A stretch of 64,000 bases of DNA from an uncultured Solirubrobacterales bacterium (GTDB lineage: Bacteria > Actinomycetota > Thermoleophilia > Solirubrobacterales > 70-9), in assembly GCA_963795765.1 (NCBI GenBank), contig CAWCJW010000005.1:18984-82983 (forward strand), in the 5' to 3' direction. Shown piece by piece: positions 41,678 to 64,000 of the stretch. The stretch's first letter is position 1. Each line of letters starts with the position of its first letter. The position numbers and the translations under genes were made by a program. The notes beneath the pieces were generated by a model. It did not search any database, had not been told where the DNA came from, and worked only from the letters and a program-made list of their open reading frames with translations.

Positions 41678-43045
41678 GTGCTGTTCGGCGCCAAGCTCAG
41701 CGCGGCGCGCGCGGTCGGCGCCGCCAGTCGCGCCAGCGGGCGCGGCGGCGGTACGACGCTGCCGGGCCGCCTGCTGCTGCGGCTCGCCCCCGATGCGCTC
41801 GCCCGCCTCGGTCAGCGCCTCGACCCCACGGCGATCGTCAGCGCGACCAACGGCAAGACGACGACCGCCGGCATGATCGCCGCGGCGCTCGCGGCCGATG
41901 GTCGCCATCCGGTTCACAACCGAGCCGGCTCGAACATGACCTGGGGCGTTGCCACGGCTTTGCTCGAGCAGGAAGGCAAGGAGGGACTCTTCGAGGTCGA
42001 TGAGGCCTGGCTGCCAAAGGTGGCGGCGCAGCTCGACCCCTCTTTGCTCGTACTCGGCAACCTCTTCCGCGATCAGCTCGACCGCTATGGCGAGATGGAG
42101 ACGCTGGCCGCCGGCTGGGGGGAGACCGTCGCCTCGCGCAGCGGCCGCACTCGCTTCGCCCTCAACGCCGACGACCCGACGATTGCCGACCTCGGGCGCG
42201 AGCAGAGCGGCGAGCCGCGCCAGGGCGTCGTCTACTTCGGCATCGAGGACGCCTCCCAGGCACTGCCCGAGCTCCAACACGCCTTCGACGCCAAGCACTG
42301 CCGCCGCTGTGGCCATCCCTACGCCTACGAGCGCGCCTTCGTCGGTCACCTCGGCCACTACTCCTGCCCCAACTGCGGCGCCACTCGGCCGCGCCCCGAC
42401 GTCGCCGCCACGGCGATCGAGCTGCACGGGATGGCGGGCTCCGAGGTGACCCTGCGCACGCCGCAGGGCGAGATGCGGCTGCAGCTGCCGCTGCCTGGCC
42501 TCTACAACGTCTACAACGCCCTCGCCGCGGTCACTGCTGCGCTCGAGCTGGGCGTGCCGCCGACGACGATCTCGAGCTCGCTGCGGACGATGCGAGCGGC
42601 CTTTGGCCGGGTCGAGACAATCGAGGTCGACGCCACGTCGCTCTCGATCCTGCTGATCAAGAACCCGGCCGGCGCCAACGAGGTCCTGCGCACCCTCCTG
42701 CTCGAGGCCGGCGAGGAGAAGCTCGACCTCTGGATTGGCCTCAACGACCGGATCGCCGACGGTCGCGACGTCTCCTGGGTCTGGGACGCGGACTTCGAGC
42801 TGCTCGCCGCGGGCATTCGGCGCGTCGTCTGCGCCGGCACGCGCGCCCCGGAGATGGCCCTGCGGCTGAAGTACGCCGGCTGGCCAGAGCAGGCGATCGA
42901 GGTCGAGGCGGGGATTGAGGGCTCGCTTGATCGAGCGCTCGCGGCCAGCCCCAGGCGCCTCTTCGCCCTGCCCACCTACACCGCGCTGCTGGAGCTGCGC
43001 AAGCTGCTCGCCGCGCGCGGGCTCGCCAAGGAGTTCTGGCGGTGA
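41678..43045 (+). CDS. murT: Lipid II isoglutaminyl synthase ligase subunit MurT
   Basis: Mur-ligase P-loop SATNGKTTT, Cys4 ribbon CRRCGHPY...YSCPNCG, and a C-terminal DUF1727-like region. The partner gatD lies downstream. Confidence 0.85.
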   Translation: MLFGAKLSAARAVGAASRASGRGGGTTLPGRLLLRLAPDALARLGQRLDPTAIVSATNGKTTTAGMIAAALAADGRHPVHNRAGSNMTWGVATALLEQEGKEGLFEVDEAWLPKVAAQLDPSLLVLGNLFRDQLDRYGEMETLAAGWGETVASRSGRTRFALNADDPTIADLGREQSGEPRQGVVYFGIEDASQALPELQHAFDAKHCRRCGHPYAYERAFVGHLGHYSCPNCGATRPRPDVAATAIELHGMAGSEVTLRTPQGEMRLQLPLPGLYNVYNALAAVTAALELGVPPTTISSSLRTMRAAFGRVETIEVDATSLSILLIKNPAGANEVLRTLLLEAGEEKLDLWIGLNDRIADGRDVSWVWDADFELLAAGIRRVVCAGTRAPEMALRLKYAGWPEQAIEVEAGIEGSLDRALAASPRRLFALPTYTALLELRKLLAARGLAKEFWR

Positions 43046-43767
43046 ACGACCTGATCTGGCATGAAGTCGAGTGCGGCAGCTACAGCGCCGACCTCGCCCT
43101 CTGGGAGGAGCTCGCCGACCAGACCGACAAGCCGATCATGGAGCTCGGCTGCGGCGCCGGGCGCGTCACCCTGCACCTGGCCCGCCGCGAAGCGACCTTG
43201 GTGATCGGCGTCGACTGGGACCCCGAGCTGGTGGCGGCGATCTGGGAACGCTCCGGCAAGCTCGCCGGCGACGCCGAGGTCGGCGACGTGCGCGACTTCG
43301 AGTTCGCGACCAAGTTCAGCCTCGTGATCGCGCCGATGCAACTGATCCAGCTGCTTGCCAGCAGCCAGGACCGCATCGCCTGCCTCTCCTCCGCAGTCGA
43401 AAACATGCTGCCGGGCGGGCGGGCGGCATTCGCGATCGTCGAGGAGATGCCGGCGATCGCGCCCGCGGGCAATAGCGCGCCGCCGCTACCCGACGTGCGC
43501 CAGATCGAAGGCTGGATCTACTCCAGCCTGCCCCTGGAGCCGGTCGCCCTGCCGGACGCGATTCTGCTCCGCCGCCTGCGCCAGACGGTCGACCCCGACG
43601 GCAACATGAGCGAGGAGCTGAACGAGATCGAGCTCTCGATGCTCTCGGCGGAGACGCTCGAAGAAGAGGGTCGTGTCGTCGGCCTGCGGCCGGCCGGCCG
43701 GCGCGAGATACCGTCGACCGAAGCCCACGTCGGCTCCACCGTCGTCCTCTTCGAGAAGGAGTCCTGA
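43042..43767 (+). CDS. Class I SAM-dependent methyltransferase inserted between murT and gatD
   Basis: Motif I MELGCGAGR, then LVIGVDWD. GTG 43042 overlaps the murT stop (GTGA), and its stop shares one nt with the gatD ATG (TGATG). Confidence 0.75.
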   Translation: MNDLIWHEVECGSYSADLALWEELADQTDKPIMELGCGAGRVTLHLARREATLVIGVDWDPELVAAIWERSGKLAGDAEVGDVRDFEFATKFSLVIAPMQLIQLLASSQDRIACLSSAVENMLPGGRAAFAIVEEMPAIAPAGNSAPPLPDVRQIEGWIYSSLPLEPVALPDAILLRRLRQTVDPDGNMSEELNEIELSMLSAETLEEEGRVVGLRPAGRREIPSTEAHVGSTVVLFEKES

Positions 43768-44501
43768 TGGAGCTCCGCTTCCTCGCGCTCTACCCGGAGC
43801 AAATGAACATCTACGCCGACCGCGGCAACGTCCTCTTCCTGCAGCGGCGCTGCGAGTGGCGCGGGATTGGCTTTGCCTACACCAGCGCCGGCCCGGGCGA
43901 GGAGTTCGATCCGTCCGCGCACGACTTCATCTACCTCGGCGGCGGCCAGGATCGCGACCAGCGCGCCGTCGCCGCCGACATGGTTGAGAGCAAGCGCGCC
44001 GCGATGGCCACGGCAACCGAGGACGGTGCCGTCGTGCTCGCTGTCTGCGGCGGTTACCAGCTACTCGGCAGCAGCTACCAGCTCGATCAGGAGAGCTTGC
44101 CGGGACTCGACCTGGTCGAACTCGAGACCGTGCGCAGCGAGGGCCCACGGCTGATCGGCAACGTCGCGATCGAGGTCGATCTCGGTGGCGAGCCGCAGGT
44201 CCTCGCCGGCTTCGAGAACCACGGCGGGCGGACCCATCTAGGGGGCAACGCGACGCCCCTGGGCAAGGTGCTGAAGGGGTTTGGCAACAACGGTGAGGAT
44301 GGTTTTGAGGGAGTGCGCCACCGCAACCTGATCGGCACCTACCTGCACGGCCCGCTGCTGCCCAAGAACGCTTGGTTAGCCGACTACCTGATCGCCCTCG
44401 CCTTGGAGCGCCGCTATGGCGAGCGCCCTGAGTTGGAGCCACTCGATGACACGCTCGAGCGCGCCGCCCACGAGGCGGCGCGACGGGCAGCGCTGGCTTA
44501 G
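43767..44501 (+). CDS. gatD: Lipid II isoglutaminyl synthase glutaminase subunit GatD (CobQ-type GATase)
   Basis: YADRGNV, catalytic Cys in LAVCGGYQLLG, and GTYLHGP motifs. Confidence 0.85.
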   Translation: MELRFLALYPEQMNIYADRGNVLFLQRRCEWRGIGFAYTSAGPGEEFDPSAHDFIYLGGGQDRDQRAVAADMVESKRAAMATATEDGAVVLAVCGGYQLLGSSYQLDQESLPGLDLVELETVRSEGPRLIGNVAIEVDLGGEPQVLAGFENHGGRTHLGGNATPLGKVLKGFGNNGEDGFEGVRHRNLIGTYLHGPLLPKNAWLADYLIALALERRYGERPELEPLDDTLERAAHEAARRAALA

Positions 44502-44940: not shown

Positions 44941-46206
44941 CTAGACGACGGCGAGATCGTCGAAGCGGTGCAGCTCGGCGACCGGGACCTTGGCGCGAAC
45001 CAGAACCCCGTCCTCGCGCTCGGTCCGCTCGAGGTCGCCGGCGATCTCGTGCAGCTCGTGCAGGCGGCCGCCCTCGGCGTAGGGAATCAGCAGCTCGACC
45101 TCGGCCAGGGTGTCCTCGAAGGCCGACTCGATGCTCTCGCGCAGCGGATCGAGTCCAATGTCGGCCAGGGCCGAGACCAGGATCGCGCCCGGATGGCGCA
45201 GCAGCACCTCGGCCCGCTCGTCGTCGTCCAGCAGGTCCGCCTTGTTGAGCACGAGCAGGCGTGGCTTGGCGCCGGCGCCGATCTCCTCCAAGACCTCGTC
45301 GACGGCCTGCATGTCGACCACCCGGCGCTCCTCCGACGCCGCTGCGTCGACGACGTGGAGGATCAGGTCGGCCAACACGGTCTCCTCGAGCGTCGCCTTG
45401 AACGCCTCGACCAGTTGGTGGGGCAGCTTCTCGATGAAGCCGACGGTGTCGGTCAGCAGGTAATCGCGGCCGGAGAGCTCGAGGCTGCGCGTGGTCGGGT
45501 CGAGCGTGTGGAAGAGACGATCGCCAACCCCCACCTCGGCCCCGGTCAGGGCGTTGAGCAGGGTCGACTTGCCGGCGTTGGTGTAGCCGGCGAGGGCGAC
45601 CCGCGGCAAGGAGGAGCGCTCGCGTTGGGCGCGCATCACGCCGCGGTTGCCTTCGAGCCGGCCGAGTCGGCGACGCAGCGCGGCAATCCGGTCGCGGGCG
45701 AGGCGCCGGTCGGTCTCGATCTGGCTCTCGCCCGGCCCCCTGGTGCCGATGCCCCCGCCGAGCCGCTCGAGGTGGGTCCAGAGCCCGCGCATGCGGGCGA
45801 GGTTGTACTCCAGCTGGGCCAGCTCGACCTGCAGCTTGCCCTCGGCCGAGTGGGCGTGGTCGGCGAAGATGTCGAGGATGACCGCGGTGCGGTCAATCAC
45901 CGGCACGCCCAGGGCGGCCTCGAGATTGCGCTCCTGACGCGGCGCCAGCTCGTCGTCGCAGGCGACCACGTTAGCGTCGCAGGCCTCGATCTCGGCCTTC
46001 AGCTCGGTCAGCTTGCCGCGACCGACGTAGCGGTCGGGATCGGGCTTTTCGCGCTGTTGCACCGCCTCGCCGGCGGTGGCGACGCCCGCGGTGCGCAGCA
46101 GCTCCTTCAGCTCGGTCAGCGGATCGCCCTCCTCGCGCCCGCTGGTAATGCCAATCGCCAGTGCTCGCTGACGGGCACGCGGGTTCGAGACGCCAGCGCC
46201 ACCCAT
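44941..46206 (-). CDS. hflX: GTPase HflX
   Basis: ATG 46206 is internal to ORF 44941..46644. HflX N-domain (YVGRGKLTELK) and G-domain AGYTNAGKSTLLNALTG, DTVGF, NKAD. Confidence 0.9.
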   Translation of the reverse strand: MGGAGVSNPRARQRALAIGITSGREEGDPLTELKELLRTAGVATAGEAVQQREKPDPDRYVGRGKLTELKAEIEACDANVVACDDELAPRQERNLEAALGVPVIDRTAVILDIFADHAHSAEGKLQVELAQLEYNLARMRGLWTHLERLGGGIGTRGPGESQIETDRRLARDRIAALRRRLGRLEGNRGVMRAQRERSSLPRVALAGYTNAGKSTLLNALTGAEVGVGDRLFHTLDPTTRSLELSGRDYLLTDTVGFIEKLPHQLVEAFKATLEETVLADLILHVVDAAASEERRVVDMQAVDEVLEEIGAGAKPRLLVLNKADLLDDDERAEVLLRHPGAILVSALADIGLDPLRESIESAFEDTLAEVELLIPYAEGGRLHELHEIAGDLERTEREDGVLVRAKVPVAELHRFDDLAVV

Positions 46207-46318
46207 GCCGTTGCGCGTTTCCACCTGCCGCCCATTTCTCGACCGTTGCACCTTTCTTGATTGTAGGCGCCGGCCCCTCCCCCGCCCCTTGGCCCCGGTG
46301 CGACTAGGCTTAACCGCC

Positions 46319-47314
46319 GTGAAGGTCTTCGTAACGGGAGGAACGGGCTTCATCGGCGGCGAGGTCGTGCGCCAGTTGCGTGCCCGCGGCGACGAGGTGG
46401 TTTGCCTCGTTCGCACCCCCGGCAAAGCGAGCAAGCTGACCGAGCTCGGCTGTGAGCTCATCAGCGGCGATCTCGGCGATGCCGAGGCGCTGCGTGCCGG
46501 TATGGAGGGCTGCGACGGCCTGATCCACGCCGCCGCCATGTACGAGGTCGGGATCCCGACCAAGCAGCACCCGGCGATGTTCGAGGCCAACGTGCGCGGC
46601 AGCGAACGGGTGCTGGAGGCCGCATTGGCAGCCAAAGTCGGCAAGGTCGTCTACGTCTCCACCGTCGGCATCTTCGGCAACACCCACGGCAAAATCGTCG
46701 ACGAGAGCTACGAGCACCCGGGCAAGGAATTCACCTCCTACTACGAGGAGACCAAGCTCGAGGGCCACCGGATCGCCAAGCGGATGATGGCCGAGGACGG
46801 CCTCCCTGGAGTAATCGTCCAGCCCGGCGGTGTCTACGGACCGGGTGACGAATCGCAGGTTGCGGACCTGCTGAAGGAATTTTTCGCCGGCAGGCTCTTC
46901 TTGCTGCCTTTCCCGGAGCTCGGCATCTGCCTCTCGCACGTGGACGACATCGCCGCTGGCATCCTGCTCGGCCTCGACAAGGGCAAGGTCGGCGAGACCT
47001 ATGTGATCAGCGGGCCGGCAACGACTATGCGCGAGGCGATCGACACGATCGCGGCCGTCAGCGGCCGCAAGGCCCCGAAGCGGAATCTGCCAACGTCGCT
47101 GATGAAGGCACTGACCCCGATCGGCCCCCTGGTCGGCAAGATGATGGGCCAGCCGCCGAACCTGCGCGAGCTGATCTCCACCGCCGACGGCGTCACCTTC
47201 TGGGCCAGTTATGAGAAGGCCGGGCGCGAGCTGGGCTATGCGCCGCGCGGCATGGAGGAAGGCATGCGGCAGACGCTTGCAGGGGACGACCGATTTCCCG
47301 ATCCAGTTGCGTGA
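46319..47314 (+). CDS. NAD-dependent epimerase/dehydratase (extended SDR)
   Basis: GTG 46319 gives VKVFVTGGTGFIGGEVV. YYEETK (YxxxK) is present. Confidence 0.85.
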   Translation: MKVFVTGGTGFIGGEVVRQLRARGDEVVCLVRTPGKASKLTELGCELISGDLGDAEALRAGMEGCDGLIHAAAMYEVGIPTKQHPAMFEANVRGSERVLEAALAAKVGKVVYVSTVGIFGNTHGKIVDESYEHPGKEFTSYYEETKLEGHRIAKRMMAEDGLPGVIVQPGGVYGPGDESQVADLLKEFFAGRLFLLPFPELGICLSHVDDIAAGILLGLDKGKVGETYVISGPATTMREAIDTIAAVSGRKAPKRNLPTSLMKALTPIGPLVGKMMGQPPNLRELISTADGVTFWASYEKAGRELGYAPRGMEEGMRQTLAGDDRFPDPVA

Positions 47315-47393: not shown

Positions 47394-48238
47394 ATGCGTG
47401 TAATCGATGTGATGCACTTGGGGCGGCCGCACGTGATCGGTTGCTGGGAGGTGGACGGAGCTCTTTTGACCCAGGTCCTCAGTCCTCGATGGAGACGTTG
47501 ATTGAGGCGATTGGCGATGAGCAGCCGCGAGCGCTGCTGCTGACACATATCCACCTCGATCACGCCGCGGCGACCGGTGCCCTGGTGCGCCGCTGGCCCG
47601 ACCTGGAGGTCTACGTTCACGAGCGTGGTGCCAGGCACCTGATCGACCCCTCGAAGCTGCTGGCCAGCGCCGAGCGCCTCTACGGCGACCAGATGGAATA
47701 CCTCTGGGGCGAGATCGTGCCGGTCCCCGAGGCCAACGTGAAGCCGCTCGCCGGTGGCGAGGACGTGCTGGGGATGCGCGTCGCCTACACGCCCGGTCAT
47801 GCCTCCCACCACGTTTGTTACTTCCACGAGGAGAGCGGCACCGCCTTCGTCGGCGACGTCGCCGCGGTCCGCATCCCGCCCTCGAACCTCGTTGTCCCTC
47901 CTACTCCGCCGCCCGACATCGACATCGAGTCCTGGCTCGAGTCGATCGCCCTGGTCGAGTCCTGGCGCCCCGAGCGGCTCGCCCTCACCCATTTCGGCCA
48001 GGTTGATGAGCCGATCGAGCACCTGGAGATCGTCCGCCGCCGTTTGCGCGAAGAGGCCGACCTCGCCCGCGAATTTTCCGAGGAGGATTACGAGCGCCAC
48101 CACCGCGCCCTGGTCGCCGAGAGCGTCGGCCCCGAGACCGCCGAGGAGCTGATCCAGGGCGTTCCACCCCAGTACCAGTGGCGCGGTCTCAATCGCTACT
48201 GGGAAAAGCGCGGCGAGCGCGAAGCGTCCCCTAGCTGA
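47394..48238 (+). pseudogene. MBL-fold metallo-hydrolase, N-terminus in a different frame (frameshift or sequence error)
   Basis: ATG 47394 encodes MRVIDVMHLGRPHVIGCWEVDGAL and then stops at 47499-47501. The listed ORF frame continues FDPGPQSSMETL...LLLTHIHLDHAAA (HxHxDH). The switch is at ctctttt (47461-47467). Confidence 0.7.
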
Positions 48239-49400
48239 GGTATTTGCGCATCCGCTCGACCGCCTCGGAGATGCGGTCGTCGGGCGTGGTCAGCGAGATG
48301 CGGAAGAAGCCCTCGCCGCTGGGCCCGTACATCGAGCCCGGTGAGACGACCACGGCGGCCTCTTCGAGCACGAGCTCGGCGAAGGAGGTCGAGGTGTGGC
48401 CCTCGGGCACGGGGGCCCAGACGTAGATCGTCCCCTTTGGCGCGTTGACCTCGACGCCGATCTCGCGCAGGGCGCTGACAACGAGATCGCGGCGACGAAG
48501 GTAGGTCTCGTTCATCCGTTGCAGCGGGCCGCTCGGGCCCTGCAGGGCGGCTACGCCGGCCATCTGCACCGCCTCGAACAGGCCCGAGTCGACGTTGGTC
48601 TTCAGTCGCCAGTAGGTCTGCACGGCCTCGGCGTTGCCGAGGATCGCGGCGCAGCGCCAGCCGGTCATGTTGAAGCCCTTGGAGAGCGAGAAGACCTCAA
48701 CCCCGACCTCCTTGGCGCCGGGCGTGGCAAGGAAGCTCGGGGCGACATAGCCGTCGTAGGTGGTCTCCGAGTAGGCGTTGTCATGGACGACGAGGATCTC
48801 GTGCTCGCGGGCGAAGGAGACGACCATCTCGAAGAAGCCCTCGGGGACGACGGCACCGGTCGGGTTATTGGGGAAGTTGATGAACATCAGCCGCGCCTTC
48901 GCCGCGACCTCGGCCGGGATCGCACTGAGGTCGGGGGCGAAGCCCAGCTCGGGCACCAGCGGCAGCAGCTCGGCGTTCGCTCCGGCGAGGATCGGGCCAC
49001 CGGTGTAGACCGGGTAGCCGGGATCGGAGGCAAGCGCCACGTCGCCCGGATCGAGGAAGGCGAAGCAGAGGTTGTAGATGCACTCCTTGGCGCCGATCGC
49101 CGGGATCACCTCGCTTTCGGGATCGATCTCGACCCCGAAGCGCCGGTCGTAGAACTCGGCGAAGGCCTCGCGAAACTCGCCGCGGCCGCGGTTGCTCGGG
49201 TACTGCTGGTTGCCGGGCTCGGCCACCGCCGCCTGCATCGCCGAGACGATGTGGGGGTAGGTCGGTTCGTCGGGATCGCCGATGCCAAGGCTGATCACGT
49301 CGATGCCGGCAGCGCGCTTGTCGGCGATCGTCCGCTCCAGCTCCTGGAACTTGTAGGGAGGCATCGCCTCCAGCCGCTTGGACGGGTCCGAGATCGCCAT
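48231..49400 (-). CDS. Class I PLP aminotransferase, LL-diaminopimelate aminotransferase-like
   Basis: ISLGIGDPDEP, NPTGAV and the PLP-Lys context FSLSKGFNMTGWR. It is adjacent to the dapF homologue. Confidence 0.75.
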   Translation of the reverse strand: MAISDPSKRLEAMPPYKFQELERTIADKRAAGIDVISLGIGDPDEPTYPHIVSAMQAAVAEPGNQQYPSNRGRGEFREAFAEFYDRRFGVEIDPESEVIPAIGAKECIYNLCFAFLDPGDVALASDPGYPVYTGGPILAGANAELLPLVPELGFAPDLSAIPAEVAAKARLMFINFPNNPTGAVVPEGFFEMVVSFAREHEILVVHDNAYSETTYDGYVAPSFLATPGAKEVGVEVFSLSKGFNMTGWRCAAILGNAEAVQTYWRLKTNVDSGLFEAVQMAGVAALQGPSGPLQRMNETYLRRRDLVVSALREIGVEVNAPKGTIYVWAPVPEGHTSTSFAELVLEEAAVVVSPGSMYGPSGEGFFRISLTTPDDRISEAVERMRKYLS

Positions 49401-49412
49401 GGGCGCGGAAAT

Positions 49413-50258
49413 CTAGCCGTCCAGCTCGGCGAGTGCCGCCAGCAGGTCGGTCGAGAGCTCGCCGGCGCAGATCGGCTCGGCCCAGCCGCTGAGGGTGACG
49501 TCGAGCTGGTCGGAGATCTCGACCTCGAGCTCGCCCCCGTCGAGCTCGACCGTGATCGGACTGGGAACGCCGCGCAGGAAAGCGGTCACCGCCGCGCCAC
49601 TGGCGCCAGTGCCCGAGGAGAGCGTCTCCCCTACCCCACGCTCGAAGATCCGCGCCCGCACCCGCTCGCCGTCGATGCGCAGGAAGGAGACATTGGTGCG
49701 ATTGGGGAAGAACGGGTGCGCTTCGATCCCGGGGCCGATCGCCCCCAGGTCGAGCTCGTCCAACAGCTCGCCGACCTCGATCGCGCACTGGGGATTGCCG
49801 ATCGAGACGTGCTGGAACTCCCAGCTCCGCCCGTCCACGCTCAGTGTGCCGGCGCCATCGGGCTGGCCGTCGGGGAAGTCCTTGGAGGCAGTGCTTGCCT
49901 TTCCCATCGCCACCGAGCAGCTGCGTTCCGAGGCGATCGTCGGCGTCACCGGCCCCGCCGCGGTGAGGATCGAGAAAGTGTCCTCCCCCGTCCAGCCGTG
50001 CCTCCGCAGGTAAAGAATCGCCTCGCGTGCACCGTTGCCGGAGAGCTCGGCCTCCGAGCCGTCGGGGTTGAAGATCCGCAGCTTGGCGACGTAGGCGGGA
50101 TCGTCGCTGCGCGCGAGTAGCAAGACTCCGTCCGAGCCAACGCCGAAATGCGGATCGCAGATCCGCTGCACCCGGCCCGGTGTCAGCTCCCAGGGAAGCT
50201 CGTCGACCTCGACGATCAGGTAGTCGTTGCCCAGCGCCTGCCACTTCTCGAATTTCAC
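49413..50258 (-). CDS. dapF: Diaminopimelate epimerase homologue lacking both catalytic cysteines (Ser73/Ser215)
   Basis: Full-length DapF-like protein (WQALGNDYLIV, FNPDGSEAELSGNGAR, SIGNPQCAIEV, ERGVGETLSSGTGAS). The two positions that are Cys in canonical DapF are Ser here. Confidence 0.8.
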   Translation of the reverse strand: MKFEKWQALGNDYLIVEVDELPWELTPGRVQRICDPHFGVGSDGVLLLARSDDPAYVAKLRIFNPDGSEAELSGNGAREAILYLRRHGWTGEDTFSILTAAGPVTPTIASERSCSVAMGKASTASKDFPDGQPDGAGTLSVDGRSWEFQHVSIGNPQCAIEVGELLDELDLGAIGPGIEAHPFFPNRTNVSFLRIDGERVRARIFERGVGETLSSGTGASGAAVTAFLRGVPSPITVELDGGELEVEISDQLDVTLSGWAEPICAGELSTDLLAALAELDG

Positions 50259-50267
50259 AGTGGCAGC

Positions 50268-51000
50268 CTATTTGTCTAACGCGTCGGCGATCTGGGCCGC
50301 CACGACGTCGTCAGGGCGATCTTCGCGCTCGATCCAGCGCAGGTTGGGCACCTTGCGCATCCAGGTCAGCTGGCGGCGAGCGTAGTTGCGCGAGCGCTGC
50401 TGCATCCTCTCCAGGTCGCCGCTCAGCACCTCGTCGAAGCCGAGCGCCTTGCGCGCGGTTCGCGACGGCCCCGCCTCCTCCGCCCGCTCGACCTCGGCAC
50501 GCGCGCCGGCGGCGACGATCGCCTCCGTCCGCGCGTCGATCCGCTCGTACAGCGTCTGCCGCTCCATGCTCGAGCCCGAAGATCGCGGTCGGATGCCGCG
50601 TCTCCGGCGACCACAGCTCCGAGTCCTCCGATTCCGGTGTCGCCTTGACCAGTGAGAGCTCGCCCAGTGCCGCTCGCAGGTAGAGCCCGGTCCCCCCGAC
50701 CACGATCGGCCGCCGCCCCGCCTCCAGCGCCGCATCGATCTCGGCGTGGGCGAGCGGCATGTAGTCGCCGACCGAGAACGGCCGCGTGACCGGAACGAAG
50801 CCGACCAACCGGTGCTCCAGGCGAGCCTGCTCCTCGGCCGAGGCGACGCCGGTGAGCACCGAGAGTCCTGCGTAGACCTGGAGCGCGTCGCAGGAGATCG
50901 CGACGGGGTCCTCCCCCCGCTCCCGCAGCAGCTCGGCAAGCTCGATCGCCACCCCGGTCTTACCAACCCCGGTTGGCCCGAAGATCGCGATGACGTGCAC
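50268..51000 (-). pseudogene. miaA: tRNA dimethylallyltransferase, frame broken (pseudogene or sequence error)
   Basis: GTG 51000 gives VHVIAIFGPTGVGKT...RHPTAIFGLE in one frame. The remainder, MERQTLYERIDARTEAIVAAGA...RQLTWMRK, is in another frame. The switch is near 50566-50572 (ctcgagCatggag on the coding strand). Confidence 0.8.
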
Positions 51001-51001
51001 G

Positions 51002-52331
51002 TCAGAGCGCGCGGCTGAGCAATCTCTCGGTCCCGGTAAGGGTCTGAGAGGTTGCGGCGGTGATCTCGACCTCGACCAGCTCGCCCGGCGTGGCGGTGCC
51101 CTCGAAGTTGACCGCCTTGTTGTGCCTGCTGCGGCCCCGCAGCCGCGTCTCGTCGGTGCGGCTGGTCCCTTCGACCATCACCTCGATGTCCCGCCCAACG
51201 AATCGCTCGAGCTCGCTCGCTCGCTCGCCGCTGGACCAGCTCGACCAGCCGCTCCATCCGCTCGACCTTGACCGGGTGCGGGATCTGGTCGCCGAACTCT
51301 GCCGCCTCGGTTTCGCGCCGCGGCGAGAAGACGAAGGTGAAGGCGCTGTCGTAGCCGACCTCGTCGACCACTTCCAGCGTCTGCTCGAAATCGGCCTCGG
51401 TCTCCCCCGGGAAGCCGACGATGATGTCGGTGGTGATCGCGCAGTCGGGCACGTGCTCGCGGATCAGCGAGACGCGATCCATGTAGCGCTGGCGGTCGTA
51501 GGTGCGGCGCATGCGCTTGAGAATTGCGCTGGAGCCCGATTGCAGCGGCAGGTGGATGTGCTCGCAGACCGCGGCAAGGTCGGCGTGGGCGCGGATCACG
51601 TCCTCCTTCATGTCCTTCGGGTGCGGGCTGGTGTAGCGGATGCGCTCGATGCCGTCGATGCCGTCGACCAACCCGAGCAGCTCGGCGAATCCGATGCGGC
51701 TCTGCTTCGGCAGGTCGCGCCCGTAGCTGTTGACGTTCTGCCCGAGCAGGGTCACCTCGCGCACACCGTCAGCCGCCAGCGCCTGCGCCTCGGCTAGGAG
51801 CTCAGCTGGGTCGCGGCTCACCTCGCGCCCCCTGGTCGAAGGCACGATGCAGTAGGCGCATTTGCAATTGCACCCCTGGGAGACCTGCAGCCAGCCCTGG
51901 AACTCGCGCACGCGGCGGGTCGGCAGGTGGCCGGAGAAGTCCTCGAACTCGAAGTAACCCTGGGCGCTGAGCGAGTCGGAGTTGAGGAACTCGGCCAGCT
52001 TGTGGATCTGGCCGGGGCCGAAGGCGACGTCGACGAAGGGAAAACGCTGGAAGACCTCGTCCTTGACCGACTGCGCCCAACAACCGCCCACCCCCACAAC
52101 CCGATCGGGGTGCTCCTTCTTCAGTCGCTTCGCCTCGCCGAGGCGGGCGATGAAGCGGTTGTCCGCCGACTCGCGAATCGAGCAGGTGTTGAAGAGGATC
52201 AAATCGGCGCCGTCGGGGGTCTCCGCCTCCTCATAGCCGAGCGACTCGAGCATGCCCTGCATGCGCTCGGAGTCGTGCACATTCATCTGACAGCCGAACG
52301 TGGTGACGTGGTACCGCTTACCGCTCCTCAT
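51002..52331 (-). pseudogene. miaB: tRNA-2-methylthio-N6-dimethylallyladenosine synthase, frame broken at a (GAGC)4 repeat
   Basis: The N-terminal 370 aa or so are intact (TFGCQMN, NTCSIRE, radical-SAM CNCKCAYC). After ...VELVQRRASE the frame shifts. The C-terminus ELERFVGRDIEVMVEG...TAATSQTLTGTERLLSRAL stops at 51004-51002 in another frame. (gctc)4 lies at 51211-51226, and three units would restore the frame. Confidence 0.8.
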
Positions 52332-52365: not shown

Positions 52366-52956
52366 CTACTTGACTACGAGCGTTCCTTCCATGCCCGCTT
52401 CGGCGTGACCCGGGATGGTGCAGAGAAACGTGTAGGTGCCGGGCGCGAGATCGGCGCTGACCGAGGTTTTGCCTTCGGCGAGCGTTTCCGAGACGGCGAT
52501 TTCTTTGCCGTTCTGATCGATCGCCACGTTGTGTTCCAGCGCCGCCGGGTTGTCGAAGTCGATCGTCACTTTGCCCGGCTTGCTGGTCAGGCTGGTCTTG
52601 TCGAAGGCGAGGTCGGTCGGCGAGGCGGCCAGTTGCAGGGTGCCTCCCGGTCCTTTGGCTGCGGCTTCAGGCTTTGGCGCCGCTTCTTTCTTGCCTTCGT
52701 CTTCGACCGGCGAGGCCTCCTCTTTTTCGGCCTCTTGATCCGCCTTGGAGAGCTCCGAGGCTTTGGCCGCGTCCTCGTCCTGGGCGTGAAGCACCGCAAA
52801 GGTGGTCGTGGCACCGATCAAGGCGACGAAGGCGAGCACGACGAACGGCCCGGCTTTGCCGGGGAAGCTCTTGACCCGTAGGCCAATCATGCTGACCACC
52901 ACCGCGGAGACCGCGAGGGCGATCCCGCAGACGAAAAACAGAGTTTCGTTACTCAT
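52366..52956 (-). CDS. Membrane-anchored type-1 copper (cupredoxin, plastocyanin/amicyanin-like) protein
   Basis: Two N-terminal TM helices and an acidic/Pro linker. Cupredoxin ligand pattern H (LEHNV), C-x2-PGH (FLCTIPGH) and M (AGMEG). Confidence 0.75.
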   Translation of the reverse strand: MSNETLFFVCGIALAVSAVVVSMIGLRVKSFPGKAGPFVVLAFVALIGATTTFAVLHAQDEDAAKASELSKADQEAEKEEASPVEDEGKKEAAPKPEAAAKGPGGTLQLAASPTDLAFDKTSLTSKPGKVTIDFDNPAALEHNVAIDQNGKEIAVSETLAEGKTSVSADLAPGTYTFLCTIPGHAEAGMEGTLVVK

Positions 52957-61746: not shown

Positions 61747-63411
61747 TCAGACCTCTACAACAACCGGAACGATCATCGGCCGCCGCCGCAGCTTTTCGTA
61801 GACCAGACCGGCGACGGCGTCGTGAACGTCTTCCTGGACCAGGTGCAGCTCGCGCGTGCCCGCTTTGGCCGCGTCCTCGAGCGAGTCCTCGACCAGGTCG
61901 CGCAGGTCCTCGACCAGGGCGTCGGCCTCCTCGAGGAAGGCGACACCGCGGAAGAGCACCTCGGGGTCGGCAACGACGTGGCCGTCCTCGGAGGAAATCG
62001 TGGCGACGACGATGAAGAGGCCGTCGGCGGAGATCTCACGGCGGTCGCGCAGGGCGACGTCGTCGGGCTCGCCGACGTTGACGCCGTCGACGTAGATCAC
62101 GCCGGCGTGGATCTCCTCACCGAAGCCGGCACCGTTCTGGTCGATCTTCGAGGGGCAGGCCATTGCGCCCCTGGAAGATGTTCTCGGGGGCGACGCCGAC
62201 CGATTCGGCCAGCTCGGCGTGCAGGCGCAGGCGCTGGTGGTCGCCGTGGACGGGCAATACATAGCGCGGTTTGGTCAGGTTGAGCATCAGTTTCAGCTCC
62301 TCCTGCCAGCCATGCCCGGAGGCGTGGATCGGCGCGTCTTTTGCGGTCACGACTTTGGCGCCGATCTCGAAGATGCGGTCGATCGTCTCGTTGACGGCGC
62401 GCTCGTTGCCGGGAACCGGCGTAGCCGAGAAGACCACGGTGTCGCCGGAGTGCAGCTCGACGTCGCGGTGGTCGTTGTTGGCCATCCGCCGCAGCGCCGA
62501 GAGCGGCTCGCCCTGGCTGCCGGTCGAGATCACGATCACCTTCTCGTCGGGGAAGTTCTCGATCTCGCGCGGCTGGATGAAAAGGCCGGACGGCGCTTTG
62601 GCGATGCCGAGATTGGAGGCGATGTTGAAGTTTTTGCGCATCGAGCGACCGACCAGAGCGACGCGGCGGTCGAGCTGCACGGCGGCGTCGATCACCTGCT
62701 GGACGCGGTGGATGTTGGAGGCGAAGGAGGTGACGATGATGCGGCCCTCACAGGAGGCGAAGGTCTCCAGCAGCGCCGGCCCGACGCTCGACTCCGAGGG
62801 AGCCACGCCGGGCCGGTCGGCGTTGGTCGAGTCACCACAGAGCAGCGTCAGGCCGTCGCGACCCAGTTCCGCCAGTCGCGAGATGTCGGCGGGACGGCCG
62901 TCGACCGGGGTCTGGTCGAACTTGTAGTCGCCGGTCATCAGCACGTTGCCTGCCTTGGTGGTGAGCAGGACCCCGCGGGCGTCGGGGATCGAGTGCGAGA
63001 GGTGGATCAGCTCCAGCTCGAAGGGCCCGGCCTGAACCTTCTCCCCCGCCGGCAGCTCCTGCAGCGGCGCGTCTTCGAGCTTGTGCTCGTCGAGCTTGGC
63101 GCGGACCATGCCGACGGTGAGCAGGCCGCTGTAGATGACCGGCGGCATGCCGAGCTCACGCAGCACGTAGGGCAGGGCGCCGACGTGGTCCTCGTGACCG
63201 TGGGTGAGCACGATCGCCTCGATGTCGTCGACCCGATCGCGCAGGTAGGAGAAGTCCGGCAGGACGAGGTCGATGCCGAGCATCTCCGCGGTCGGGAACA
63301 TCAGGCCCGTGTCGACGACGACGATACGGCCGTCGTACTCGATCACGGTCATGTTCTTGCCGATCTCGCCCAGTCCCCCGAGCGGCAGCACGCGCAGCTT
63401 GCCGGCGGGCA

Positions 63412-63412
<1 letters not shown>
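61747..63412 (-). pseudogene. rnj: Ribonuclease J, frame broken near the C-terminal domain (pseudogene or sequence error)
   Basis: GTG 63412 gives VPAGKLRVLPLGGLGEIGKNMT with THGHEDHVGA (HxHxDH). The frame is good to ...APENIFQGRNG, then the remainder (IDQNGAGFGEEIHAGVIYVDG...PMIVPVVVEV) is in another frame. The switch lies near 62140-62175. Confidence 0.8.

Positions 63413-64000
<588 letters not shown>

Follow-up and report, generated by a model that had tools for sequence, protein, structure and literature searches.

Diaminopimelate epimerase (DapF) is the textbook two-cysteine racemase that is independent of pyridoxal phosphate (PLP); it is an antibiotic target, and its inhibitors, aziDAP and related compounds, alkylate the catalytic thiols. 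Since the DapL and the succinylase routes both lead to LL-diaminopimelate (LL-DAP), an epimerase, or a bypass by Ddh, is required for the cell wall and for lysine. In the Haemophilus influenzae complexes 2GKE and 2GKJ, the substrate is bound by Asn11, Asn64, Gly74, Asn75, Asn157, Asn190, Glu208, Arg209, Gly218 and Ser/Thr219. The proline racemase superfamily, of the same fold, includes an enzyme with a natural Ser/Cys pair that catalyzes the 2-epimerization of 4-hydroxyproline and a Ser/Thr dehydratase in which a serine acts as the catalytic base (PMC4113996). In this work, a stretch of 64,000 nucleotides from an uncultured Solirubrobacterales bacterium (assembly GCA_963795765.1, contig CAWCJW010000005.1, positions 18,984 to 82,983 of the forward strand; hereafter the window, with a G+C content of 68% and no Ns) was found to carry a dapF orthologue in which both catalytic cysteines are replaced by serines.

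The gene (49413-50258, minus strand) starts with GTG and encodes a protein of 281 amino acids, whose only Pfam match is PF01678 (DAP_epimerase), found in two tandem stretches (E=4.5e-39), and which scores 191.3 bits with the DapF equivalog model TIGR00652, against a cutoff of 114.65. In a phmmer search against all PDB chains, every match was either a diaminopimelate epimerase or the related O-ureidoserine racemase, and in the alignments to solved DapFs (9mro from Anabaena, 5ha4, 3ejx and 8qzy; E 1e-45 to 1e-37) both active-site loops are free of gaps. The AlphaFold2 model, built with 47 sequences as input, is a confidently predicted, pseudo-symmetric alpha/beta DapF fold (mean predicted local distance difference test score, pLDDT, of 92.4), and a Foldseek search with it against the PDB placed DapF structures at the top (TM-scores of 0.83-0.88), the engineered C73S/C217S mutants 2q9h and 2q9j among them. 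In its descent and in all sequence criteria apart from the catalytic dyad, the protein is a DapF. Since the defining thiol pair is absent, we classify it within the DapF lineage, as a variant with Ser/Ser, and not as a proven diaminopimelate epimerase.

The two serines lie exactly where the initial annotation had put them, with the codon TCC at 50042-50040 for Ser73 and TCG at 49616-49614 for Ser215, both on the minus strand, and the gap-free alignment through both loops that it had claimed is borne out by the solved structures. Ser73 aligns onto the motif EMCGNG, at the first catalytic position (Cys73 in H. influenzae, Cys75 in Anabaena), and Ser215 onto LACGTGAC, at the second one (Cys217 in H. 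influenzae, Cys224 in Anabaena). In the first loop, FNPDGSEAELSGNGARE of the window protein stands over FNSDGSEPEMCGNGIRC of the Anabaena enzyme 9mro, and in the second loop ERGVGETLSSGTGAS stands over ERGAGITLACGTGAC, ungapped in both cases; the Anabaena cysteines Cys75 and Cys224 are the catalytic ones, being alkylated by aziDAP (PMC12039745). The thiol/thiolate pair (Cys73/Cys217 in H. influenzae numbering), judged by the PROSITE signature N-x-D-G-S-x(4)-C-G-N-[GA]-x-R, is therefore missing. The modelled helices begin at residues 74 and 216, and for this reason Ser73 and Ser215 are predicted to sit at helix N-termini, as the catalytic cysteines do in DapF. All ten DAP ligands (N11, N64, G74, N75, N155, N189, E206, R207, G216 and T217) are present in the protein and invariant across its group. 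The idea that another cysteine takes over the catalytic role was also considered and rejected: neither in the alignments nor in the model does any remaining cysteine map to a catalytic position, C34 and C158 also occur in canonical cyanobacterial and plant DapFs, and C264 aligns with Tyr268 of Escherichia coli, at the dimer interface.

The serines are not a peculiarity of a single gene, as might have been supposed from the window by itself, but are characteristic of whole clades, namely Solirubrobacterales, part of Gaiellales and a large clade of Methylomirabilota/Nitrospirota. Among the closest proteins in a collection of 5.8 billion proteins (81-93% identity, the named matches being Solirubrobacterales or Thermoleophilia metagenome-assembled genomes, MAGs), 120 of 120 are Ser/Ser. 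The same was observed in 82 of 82 Thermoleophilia Ser/Ser loci at the DNA level (81 from Solirubrobacterales and one, L084, from Gaiellales), a set obtained from a scan in which each GTDB species was represented by one genome (best 80 loci) with the addition of L001, L003 and L084 and the exclusion of L002. The best 80 loci all come from uncultured Solirubrobacterales-type MAGs, many of them closed chromosomes of 2.4-2.9 Mb. The base-call error that the initial annotation had judged improbable is rejected by these data, and re-sequencing of the window in search of TGC codons becomes moot, given 82 independent loci with Ser/Ser. At the first site the serine codons TCC, TCG and TCA are used 43, 37 and 2 times, and at the second site TCC, TCG and TCT are used 46, 34 and 2 times, so that serine has been held at both sites through repeated synonymous change. 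The dN/dS ratio of the window gene against 37 orthologues of equal length ranged from 0.08 to 0.30, with a median of 0.25 (Nei-Gojobori), and the gene is thus under purifying selection. Moreover, the Ser/Ser pair is shared by the Solirubrobacterales and Gaiellales proteins, which are only 47% identical, a divergence at the level of orders.

The genomic context links the gene to the DAP pathway. Directly downstream lies a gene for a DapL-type LL-diaminopimelate aminotransferase (48231-49400, minus strand), which passes the NF006756 cutoff (537 bits against 507) and falls below that of TIGR03540 (514 bits against 593). The start of dapF is 9 nucleotides from the end of miaA, its end is 12 nucleotides from the start of the aminotransferase gene, and the latter is probably co-transcribed with dapF; it also follows dapF directly in L001, L003 and L084-L088. 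The order miaB-miaA-dapF beside a DapL-like aminotransferase, proposed in the initial annotation, is right, but miaB and miaA each carry an insertion of one nucleotide in the window. In the window and in the relatives L001 and L003 (93% and 83% identical, respectively), the order of genes is ftsK, a helix-turn-helix gene, cinA, ligT, recA, a cupredoxin gene, miaB, miaA, dapF and the aminotransferase gene, followed on the opposite strand by a metallo-beta-lactamase-fold gene and an epimerase gene, and then by hflX, dut and gatD-methyltransferase-murT. The arrangement ftsK...recA...miaB...miaA-dapF-hflX is the classical, deeply conserved actinobacterial one, represented by Rv2748c-Rv2725c of Mycobacterium tuberculosis, where miaA-dapF-hflX corresponds to Rv2727c-Rv2725c. 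Because the locus follows this conserved ftsK...hflX order, the Ser/Ser gene occupies the ancestral actinobacterial position of dapF and would be vertically inherited.

In related Thermoleophilia-like contigs with the same flanks (miaB-miaA on one side, hflX-dut-NUDIX and gatD-murT on the other), dapF was found in three states. It is Cys/Cys within dapD-dapE-dapF-aminotransferase in L086 and L088, Ser/Cys within dapD-dapE-dapF-aminotransferase or dapE-dapF-aminotransferase in the Gaiellales loci L085 and L087, and Ser/Ser within dapF-aminotransferase in the Gaiellales locus L084 and in the window. The window gene is associated with the pathway by its adjacent aminotransferase gene and by positional orthologues that reside in dapD-dapE-dapF-aminotransferase operons. 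The dapD/dapE identities exceed the NCBIfam cutoff in L085, L086 and L087, and dapD of L088 remains below it (419 bits against 441.5). The Ser/Cys form is also far from rare, since 103 of the 120 best matches to one such protein (P0459), down to 60% identity, are Ser/Cys and form a large Gaiellales clade. As the Ser/Cys gene sits in a complete DAP operon and the state is so widely kept, serine at the first site is stably compatible with a role in DAP synthesis, and a DapF of this type has long been functional within a complete succinylase-branch operon, the Ser/Ser form being apparently the next step of the same lineage. The identity of Ser/Ser DapFs to those of the other loci (39-47%) is similar to that of the neighbouring MiaA (42-49%). 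The adjacent aminotransferase, in turn, scores 397-440 bits with NF006756 at Cys/Cys loci, 452-456 bits at Ser/Cys loci and 534-547 bits, above the cutoff of 507, at Ser/Ser loci; dapE is present at the Cys/Cys and Ser/Cys loci, and dapD at all of these except L087, and the Ser/Ser loci are devoid of both. These data suggest that the succinylase branch gave way to the direct DapL route and that this coincided with the change from cysteine to serine.

Outside this locus, when 1.84 billion cluster representatives were searched exhaustively with HMMER, numerous and diverse Ser/Ser homologues were recovered, among which three groups stand out. Group A, the Solirubrobacterales type, has the motifs ELSGNGARE, GNPQC and ERGVGETLSSGTGA; the Gaiellales group (P0142/P0273) has EFSGNGTRI and ERGAGETLSSGSG; and the highly diverse group B, from Methylomirabilota/Rokubacteria and Nitrospirota, has EKSGNGLRI and ERGAGYTLASGSSSC. 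All the Ser/Ser and Ser/Cys groups exceed the TIGR00652 cutoff, and the Ser/Ser groups are annotated as diaminopimelate epimerase in their sources. In the second shell, group A shows His157Gln, Glu191Ser and Trp205Phe, and group B shows Lys72, Tyr211 and Ser218; hallmarks of the latter (the P0199/P0288 clade) are lysine before Ser73, tyrosine replacing Glu211 and GSS replacing GTG. The group B loci examined (L002, 10001-10879; L089, 6001-6849; L090, 6001-6840) have housekeeping or unrelated genes around dapF and are uninformative as to its role. A rough neighbour-joining tree did not unite the Ser/Ser groups, but it was star-like and indecisive on the number of origins. Nevertheless, since groups A and B differ in the second shell and group B uses both AGC and TCC at the first site, it is likely, although not proven, that Ser/Ser arose more than once, and a repeated origin is apparently more in keeping with a solution that is viable and functional than with decay. 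The literature searched yielded papers on cysteine mutants only, and none that described Ser/Ser or Ser/Cys DapFs occurring in nature. Two side observations arose from this survey. Cys158 (of GNPQC) and Cys34 are invariant in groups A and B (47 sequences), being non-catalytic by homology, and DapF-like domains were seen within longer proteins, namely P0195 (764 aa), P0197 (757 aa), P0220 (808 aa), P0224 (534 aa), P0225 (589 aa) and P0230 (453 aa), all but the first of which are Ser/Ser by their readable motifs; these could be fusions or mis-called genes.

Taken with the requirement for meso-DAP in these organisms, these data lead us to the hypothesis that the Ser/Ser protein is, on balance, a working thiol-free LL/meso-DAP epimerase of its lineage, with the two serines in the classical two-base geometry, a reading we consider slightly more probable than not. 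According to it, the window gene would be the housekeeping dapF, still active in diaminopimelate/lysine and peptidoglycan synthesis; LL-DAP from the adjacent DapL-type aminotransferase would bind in an unchanged DapF pocket, and the serines at the N-termini of the active-site helices would replace the thiolate/thiol pair. That catalysis has persisted, with the serines as proton carriers, is what we infer from the features described above. Turnover would probably be far below that of the Cys/Cys enzymes, which may be tolerable for slow-growing soil oligotrophs. By our rough estimate, an organism that doubles in days could meet its demand for DAP and lysine even if its kcat were lower than that of E. 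coli DapF by 2-3 orders of magnitude. The H. influenzae mutants C73S and C217S, studied by Koo, Blanchard and Vederas, reportedly keep some epimerase activity, and the corresponding alanine mutants none. The need for the product is supported by previous studies: meso-DAP is the diagnostic wall amino acid at position 3 in all Solirubrobacterales, according to the genome report of Conexibacter woesei (PMC3035278), and it was found again in a recent study of Solirubrobacter (PMC10722151). The relatives of the window carry an intact dapA beside the RNase J gene. In local tblastn searches with a Cys/Cys DapF, the window and 85 loci, whose flanks total about 1.7 Mb and are a small part of each genome, yielded one DapF-like gene per locus and no second one; with DapD and DapE as queries, matches were obtained in L085 only.

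Several observations weigh against this hypothesis. Single Cys-to-Ser mutants of PddB and of M. tuberculosis DapF keep less than 0.1% of activity (PMC8225329), and those of HisR are described as "greatly reduced" (PMC11602996). Since the catalytic sulfurs of canonical DapF have no basic residue closer than 4 Å (PMC12039745), there is no obvious activator for a serine, and the comparison of residues disclosed no compensating substitution that all the Ser/Ser groups share. With the shift to Ser/Ser, dapD and dapE disappeared from the locus, which shows a rewiring of the pathway, and none of the best 80 loci, all from uncultured MAGs, links Ser/Ser to a cultured strain of known wall chemistry. 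In addition, E. coli is able to grow without dapF, and DAP is epimerized in other bacteria by DapF2, a PLP-dependent enzyme that is not homologous to DapF (bioRxiv 10.1101/2024.10.14.618325); for both reasons the conversion of LL- to meso-DAP could be supplied otherwise. We regard as evenly poised the wider proposal that natural thiol-free, cofactor-independent epimerases exist, that Ser/Ser DapFs are the sole DAP epimerases of Solirubrobacterales, of part of Gaiellales and of a large Methylomirabilota/Nitrospirota clade, and that they evolved from Cys/Cys through Ser/Cys to Ser/Ser more than once. The supposedly obligatory thiol/thiolate pair could then be replaced by two hydroxyls, which might help these bacteria in soils that are oxidative or desiccating and in which thiols at an active site would be a disadvantage.

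The most serious alternative, which we consider less likely than not, is that the Ser/Ser protein binds DAP or a close analogue without epimerizing it and that meso-DAP is made by another enzyme encoded elsewhere in the genome, such as a Cys/Cys paralogue, a PLP-dependent DapF2, Ddh or a promiscuous racemase. The protein might then be a ligand sensor, a partner of the aminotransferase, a moonlighting partner comparable to E. coli DapF in its association with RppH, or an enzyme of different chemistry. This explanation is supported by the near inactivity of the Cys-to-Ser mutants, by catalytic positions without a nearby general base and by the loss of both dapD and dapE at the locus of Ser/Ser lineages, and it agrees with the fact that other bacteria can dispense with the epimerase step or replace it. 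A partnership independent of catalysis is known for E. coli DapF with RppH, and complexes of the two (6d13 and 6vck) are among the structure matches; the group B genes stand in contexts unrelated to DAP, and group A has changes near the site (His157 to Gln, Glu191 to Ser). Against it, the protein has all the DAP ligands and an unaltered DapF pocket, and its gene remains in a tight operon with that of an LL-DAP-forming aminotransferase in genomes of just 2.4-2.9 Mb. The Ser/Cys intermediate inside the full dapD-dapE-dapF-aminotransferase operon and the lack of a second DapF-like gene in the flanks searched, small as that part of the genome is, point in the same direction. The context favours a Cys-independent epimerase over a neofunctionalized protein.

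Much less can be said for the inactive relic that the initial annotation had listed among its options, a gene heading for loss. Both catalytic residues are gone, and miaA, miaB and dapA of the window contain frame-breaking insertions. However, these three genes are intact in the relatives, the dapF reading frame is itself intact, and the pair of serines is kept throughout the loci and proteins compared and across order-level divergence. Because Ser/Ser is conserved, dN/dS is well below 1 and the substrate ligands are invariant, both a relic and an artefact are set aside, the former being very improbable. A sequencing or assembly artefact of the window is the least credible explanation, since the at least seven one-nucleotide insertions that might suggest it, absent from every relative, are indels and not substitutions, and the serine codons are common to all the independent assemblies examined.

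These insertions deserve a comment, as they affect the quality of the window but not of dapF or the aminotransferase gene. Compared with all close relatives, the window has seven of them, at 50569 (miaA), 51208 (miaB), 62146 (the C-terminus of RNase J) and 63479, 63613, 63710 and about 63915 (dapA); all are of one additional nucleotide and none extends a homopolymer. Besides miaA and miaB, the reading frames disrupted are those of the RNase J gene, in its last ~10 codons, and of dapA, where four insertions fall within 600 nucleotides. They are probably assembly errors with an error profile of the long-read type; should they be real, this organism alone would have miaA, miaB and dapA as recent pseudogenes. 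The insertions in miaA and in miaB both create a CTCGAG hexamer (50566-50571 and 51206-51211), which may be a coincidence. An artefact specific to CTCGAG was considered and found unsupported, as the window contains 74 such sites and the insertions in dapA and in the RNase J gene occur in other contexts.

Regarding the remaining features, miaA lies directly upstream of dapF (50268-51000, minus strand; frame broken at about 50569) and is itself preceded by miaB (51002-52331, minus strand; frame broken at about 51208). The hflX gene (44941-46644, minus strand), with which the conserved actinobacterial miaA-dapF-...-hflX locus is complete, has a reading frame that is over-extended at its 5' end, its Pfam domains starting at residue 176. 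The 3' part of dapA, for 4-hydroxy-tetrahydrodipicolinate synthase, the enzyme of the first committed step of the DAP pathway, is found at 63411-64000 on the minus strand, with its four insertions, and runs off the window. On the plus strand (41678-44501), murT, encoding the ligase subunit of lipid II isoglutaminyl synthase, is followed by a methyltransferase gene and gatD, and the position of the methyltransferase gene between the two is kept in L003. A cupredoxin gene (plastocyanin/rusticyanin-like; 52366-52956, minus strand) is inserted between recA and miaB and kept in L001 and L003, which is unusual for an otherwise classical actinobacterial housekeeping region.

Either the two-thiol mechanism is not obligatory or the Ser/Ser bacteria make meso-DAP in another way, and both outcomes would be of consequence. 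Activity of the Ser/Ser proteins would mean that the mechanistic rule for this class of enzymes needs revision, that an oxidation-insensitive epimerase scaffold is available for biocatalysis, and that thiol-directed inhibitors are ineffective on these organisms. Should the proteins be inactive, a misannotated diaminopimelate epimerase is present in thousands of genomes of abundant soil lineages, given that all variants pass TIGR00652, and the missing step of meso-DAP/lysine synthesis is still to be found. In either case, the series Cys/Cys, Ser/Cys and Ser/Ser at one locus constitutes a natural experiment with many sequences for each state.

Compared with known systems, the window protein is closest to canonical DapF (H. 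influenzae 1bwz/2gke, Anabaena 9mro, Arabidopsis thaliana 3ejx and E. coli 4ijz), with which it shares the two-domain fold, the length, the DAP-binding residues, the catalytic positions at helix N-termini and the context of DAP genes. It differs in the dyad, which is Cys/Cys in the canonical enzymes and Ser/Ser, with a predicted activity, in the window; the Solirubrobacterales group also has leucine instead of the methionine that precedes Cys73, glutamine for His157, serine for Glu191 and phenylalanine for Trp205. PhzF, in which the catalytic residue is Glu45, and YddE belong to a family (PF02567) that gave no Pfam match, the structural likeness being distant (16-18% identity). No match to PF05544 was obtained either, the structures of the ProR family reaching TM-scores of about 0.7 with 16-20% identity. 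The proline racemase superfamily nevertheless has the same DapF-like pseudo-symmetric fold, and there the cysteine of the N-terminal domain has been naturally replaced by a catalytic serine with retention of 1,1-proton transfer. Its Ser/Cys epimerase parallels the Gaiellales Ser/Cys DapF, as in both the cysteine of the N-terminal domain was replaced first; being a different superfamily with a different substrate, however, its likeness to the Ser/Ser DapF is one of mechanism by analogy only. No Ser/Ser epimerase is described in that work, in which the epimerase keeps one cysteine and the Ser/Thr enzyme is a dehydratase (PMC4113996). DapF2 (Alr2-type) of staphylococci, of which none was seen in the window, shows that LL-DAP can be converted to meso-DAP without a two-thiol DapF, but it is PLP-dependent and not homologous to DapF. 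Finally, the engineered C73S and C217S forms of DapF (2q9h and 2q9j) and the mutants of PddB, HisR and M. tuberculosis DapF carry the same Cys-to-Ser change at the same positions; these are single laboratory substitutions with strongly reduced activity, whereas in the window both sites are serine, by nature, and have been kept so by long selection.

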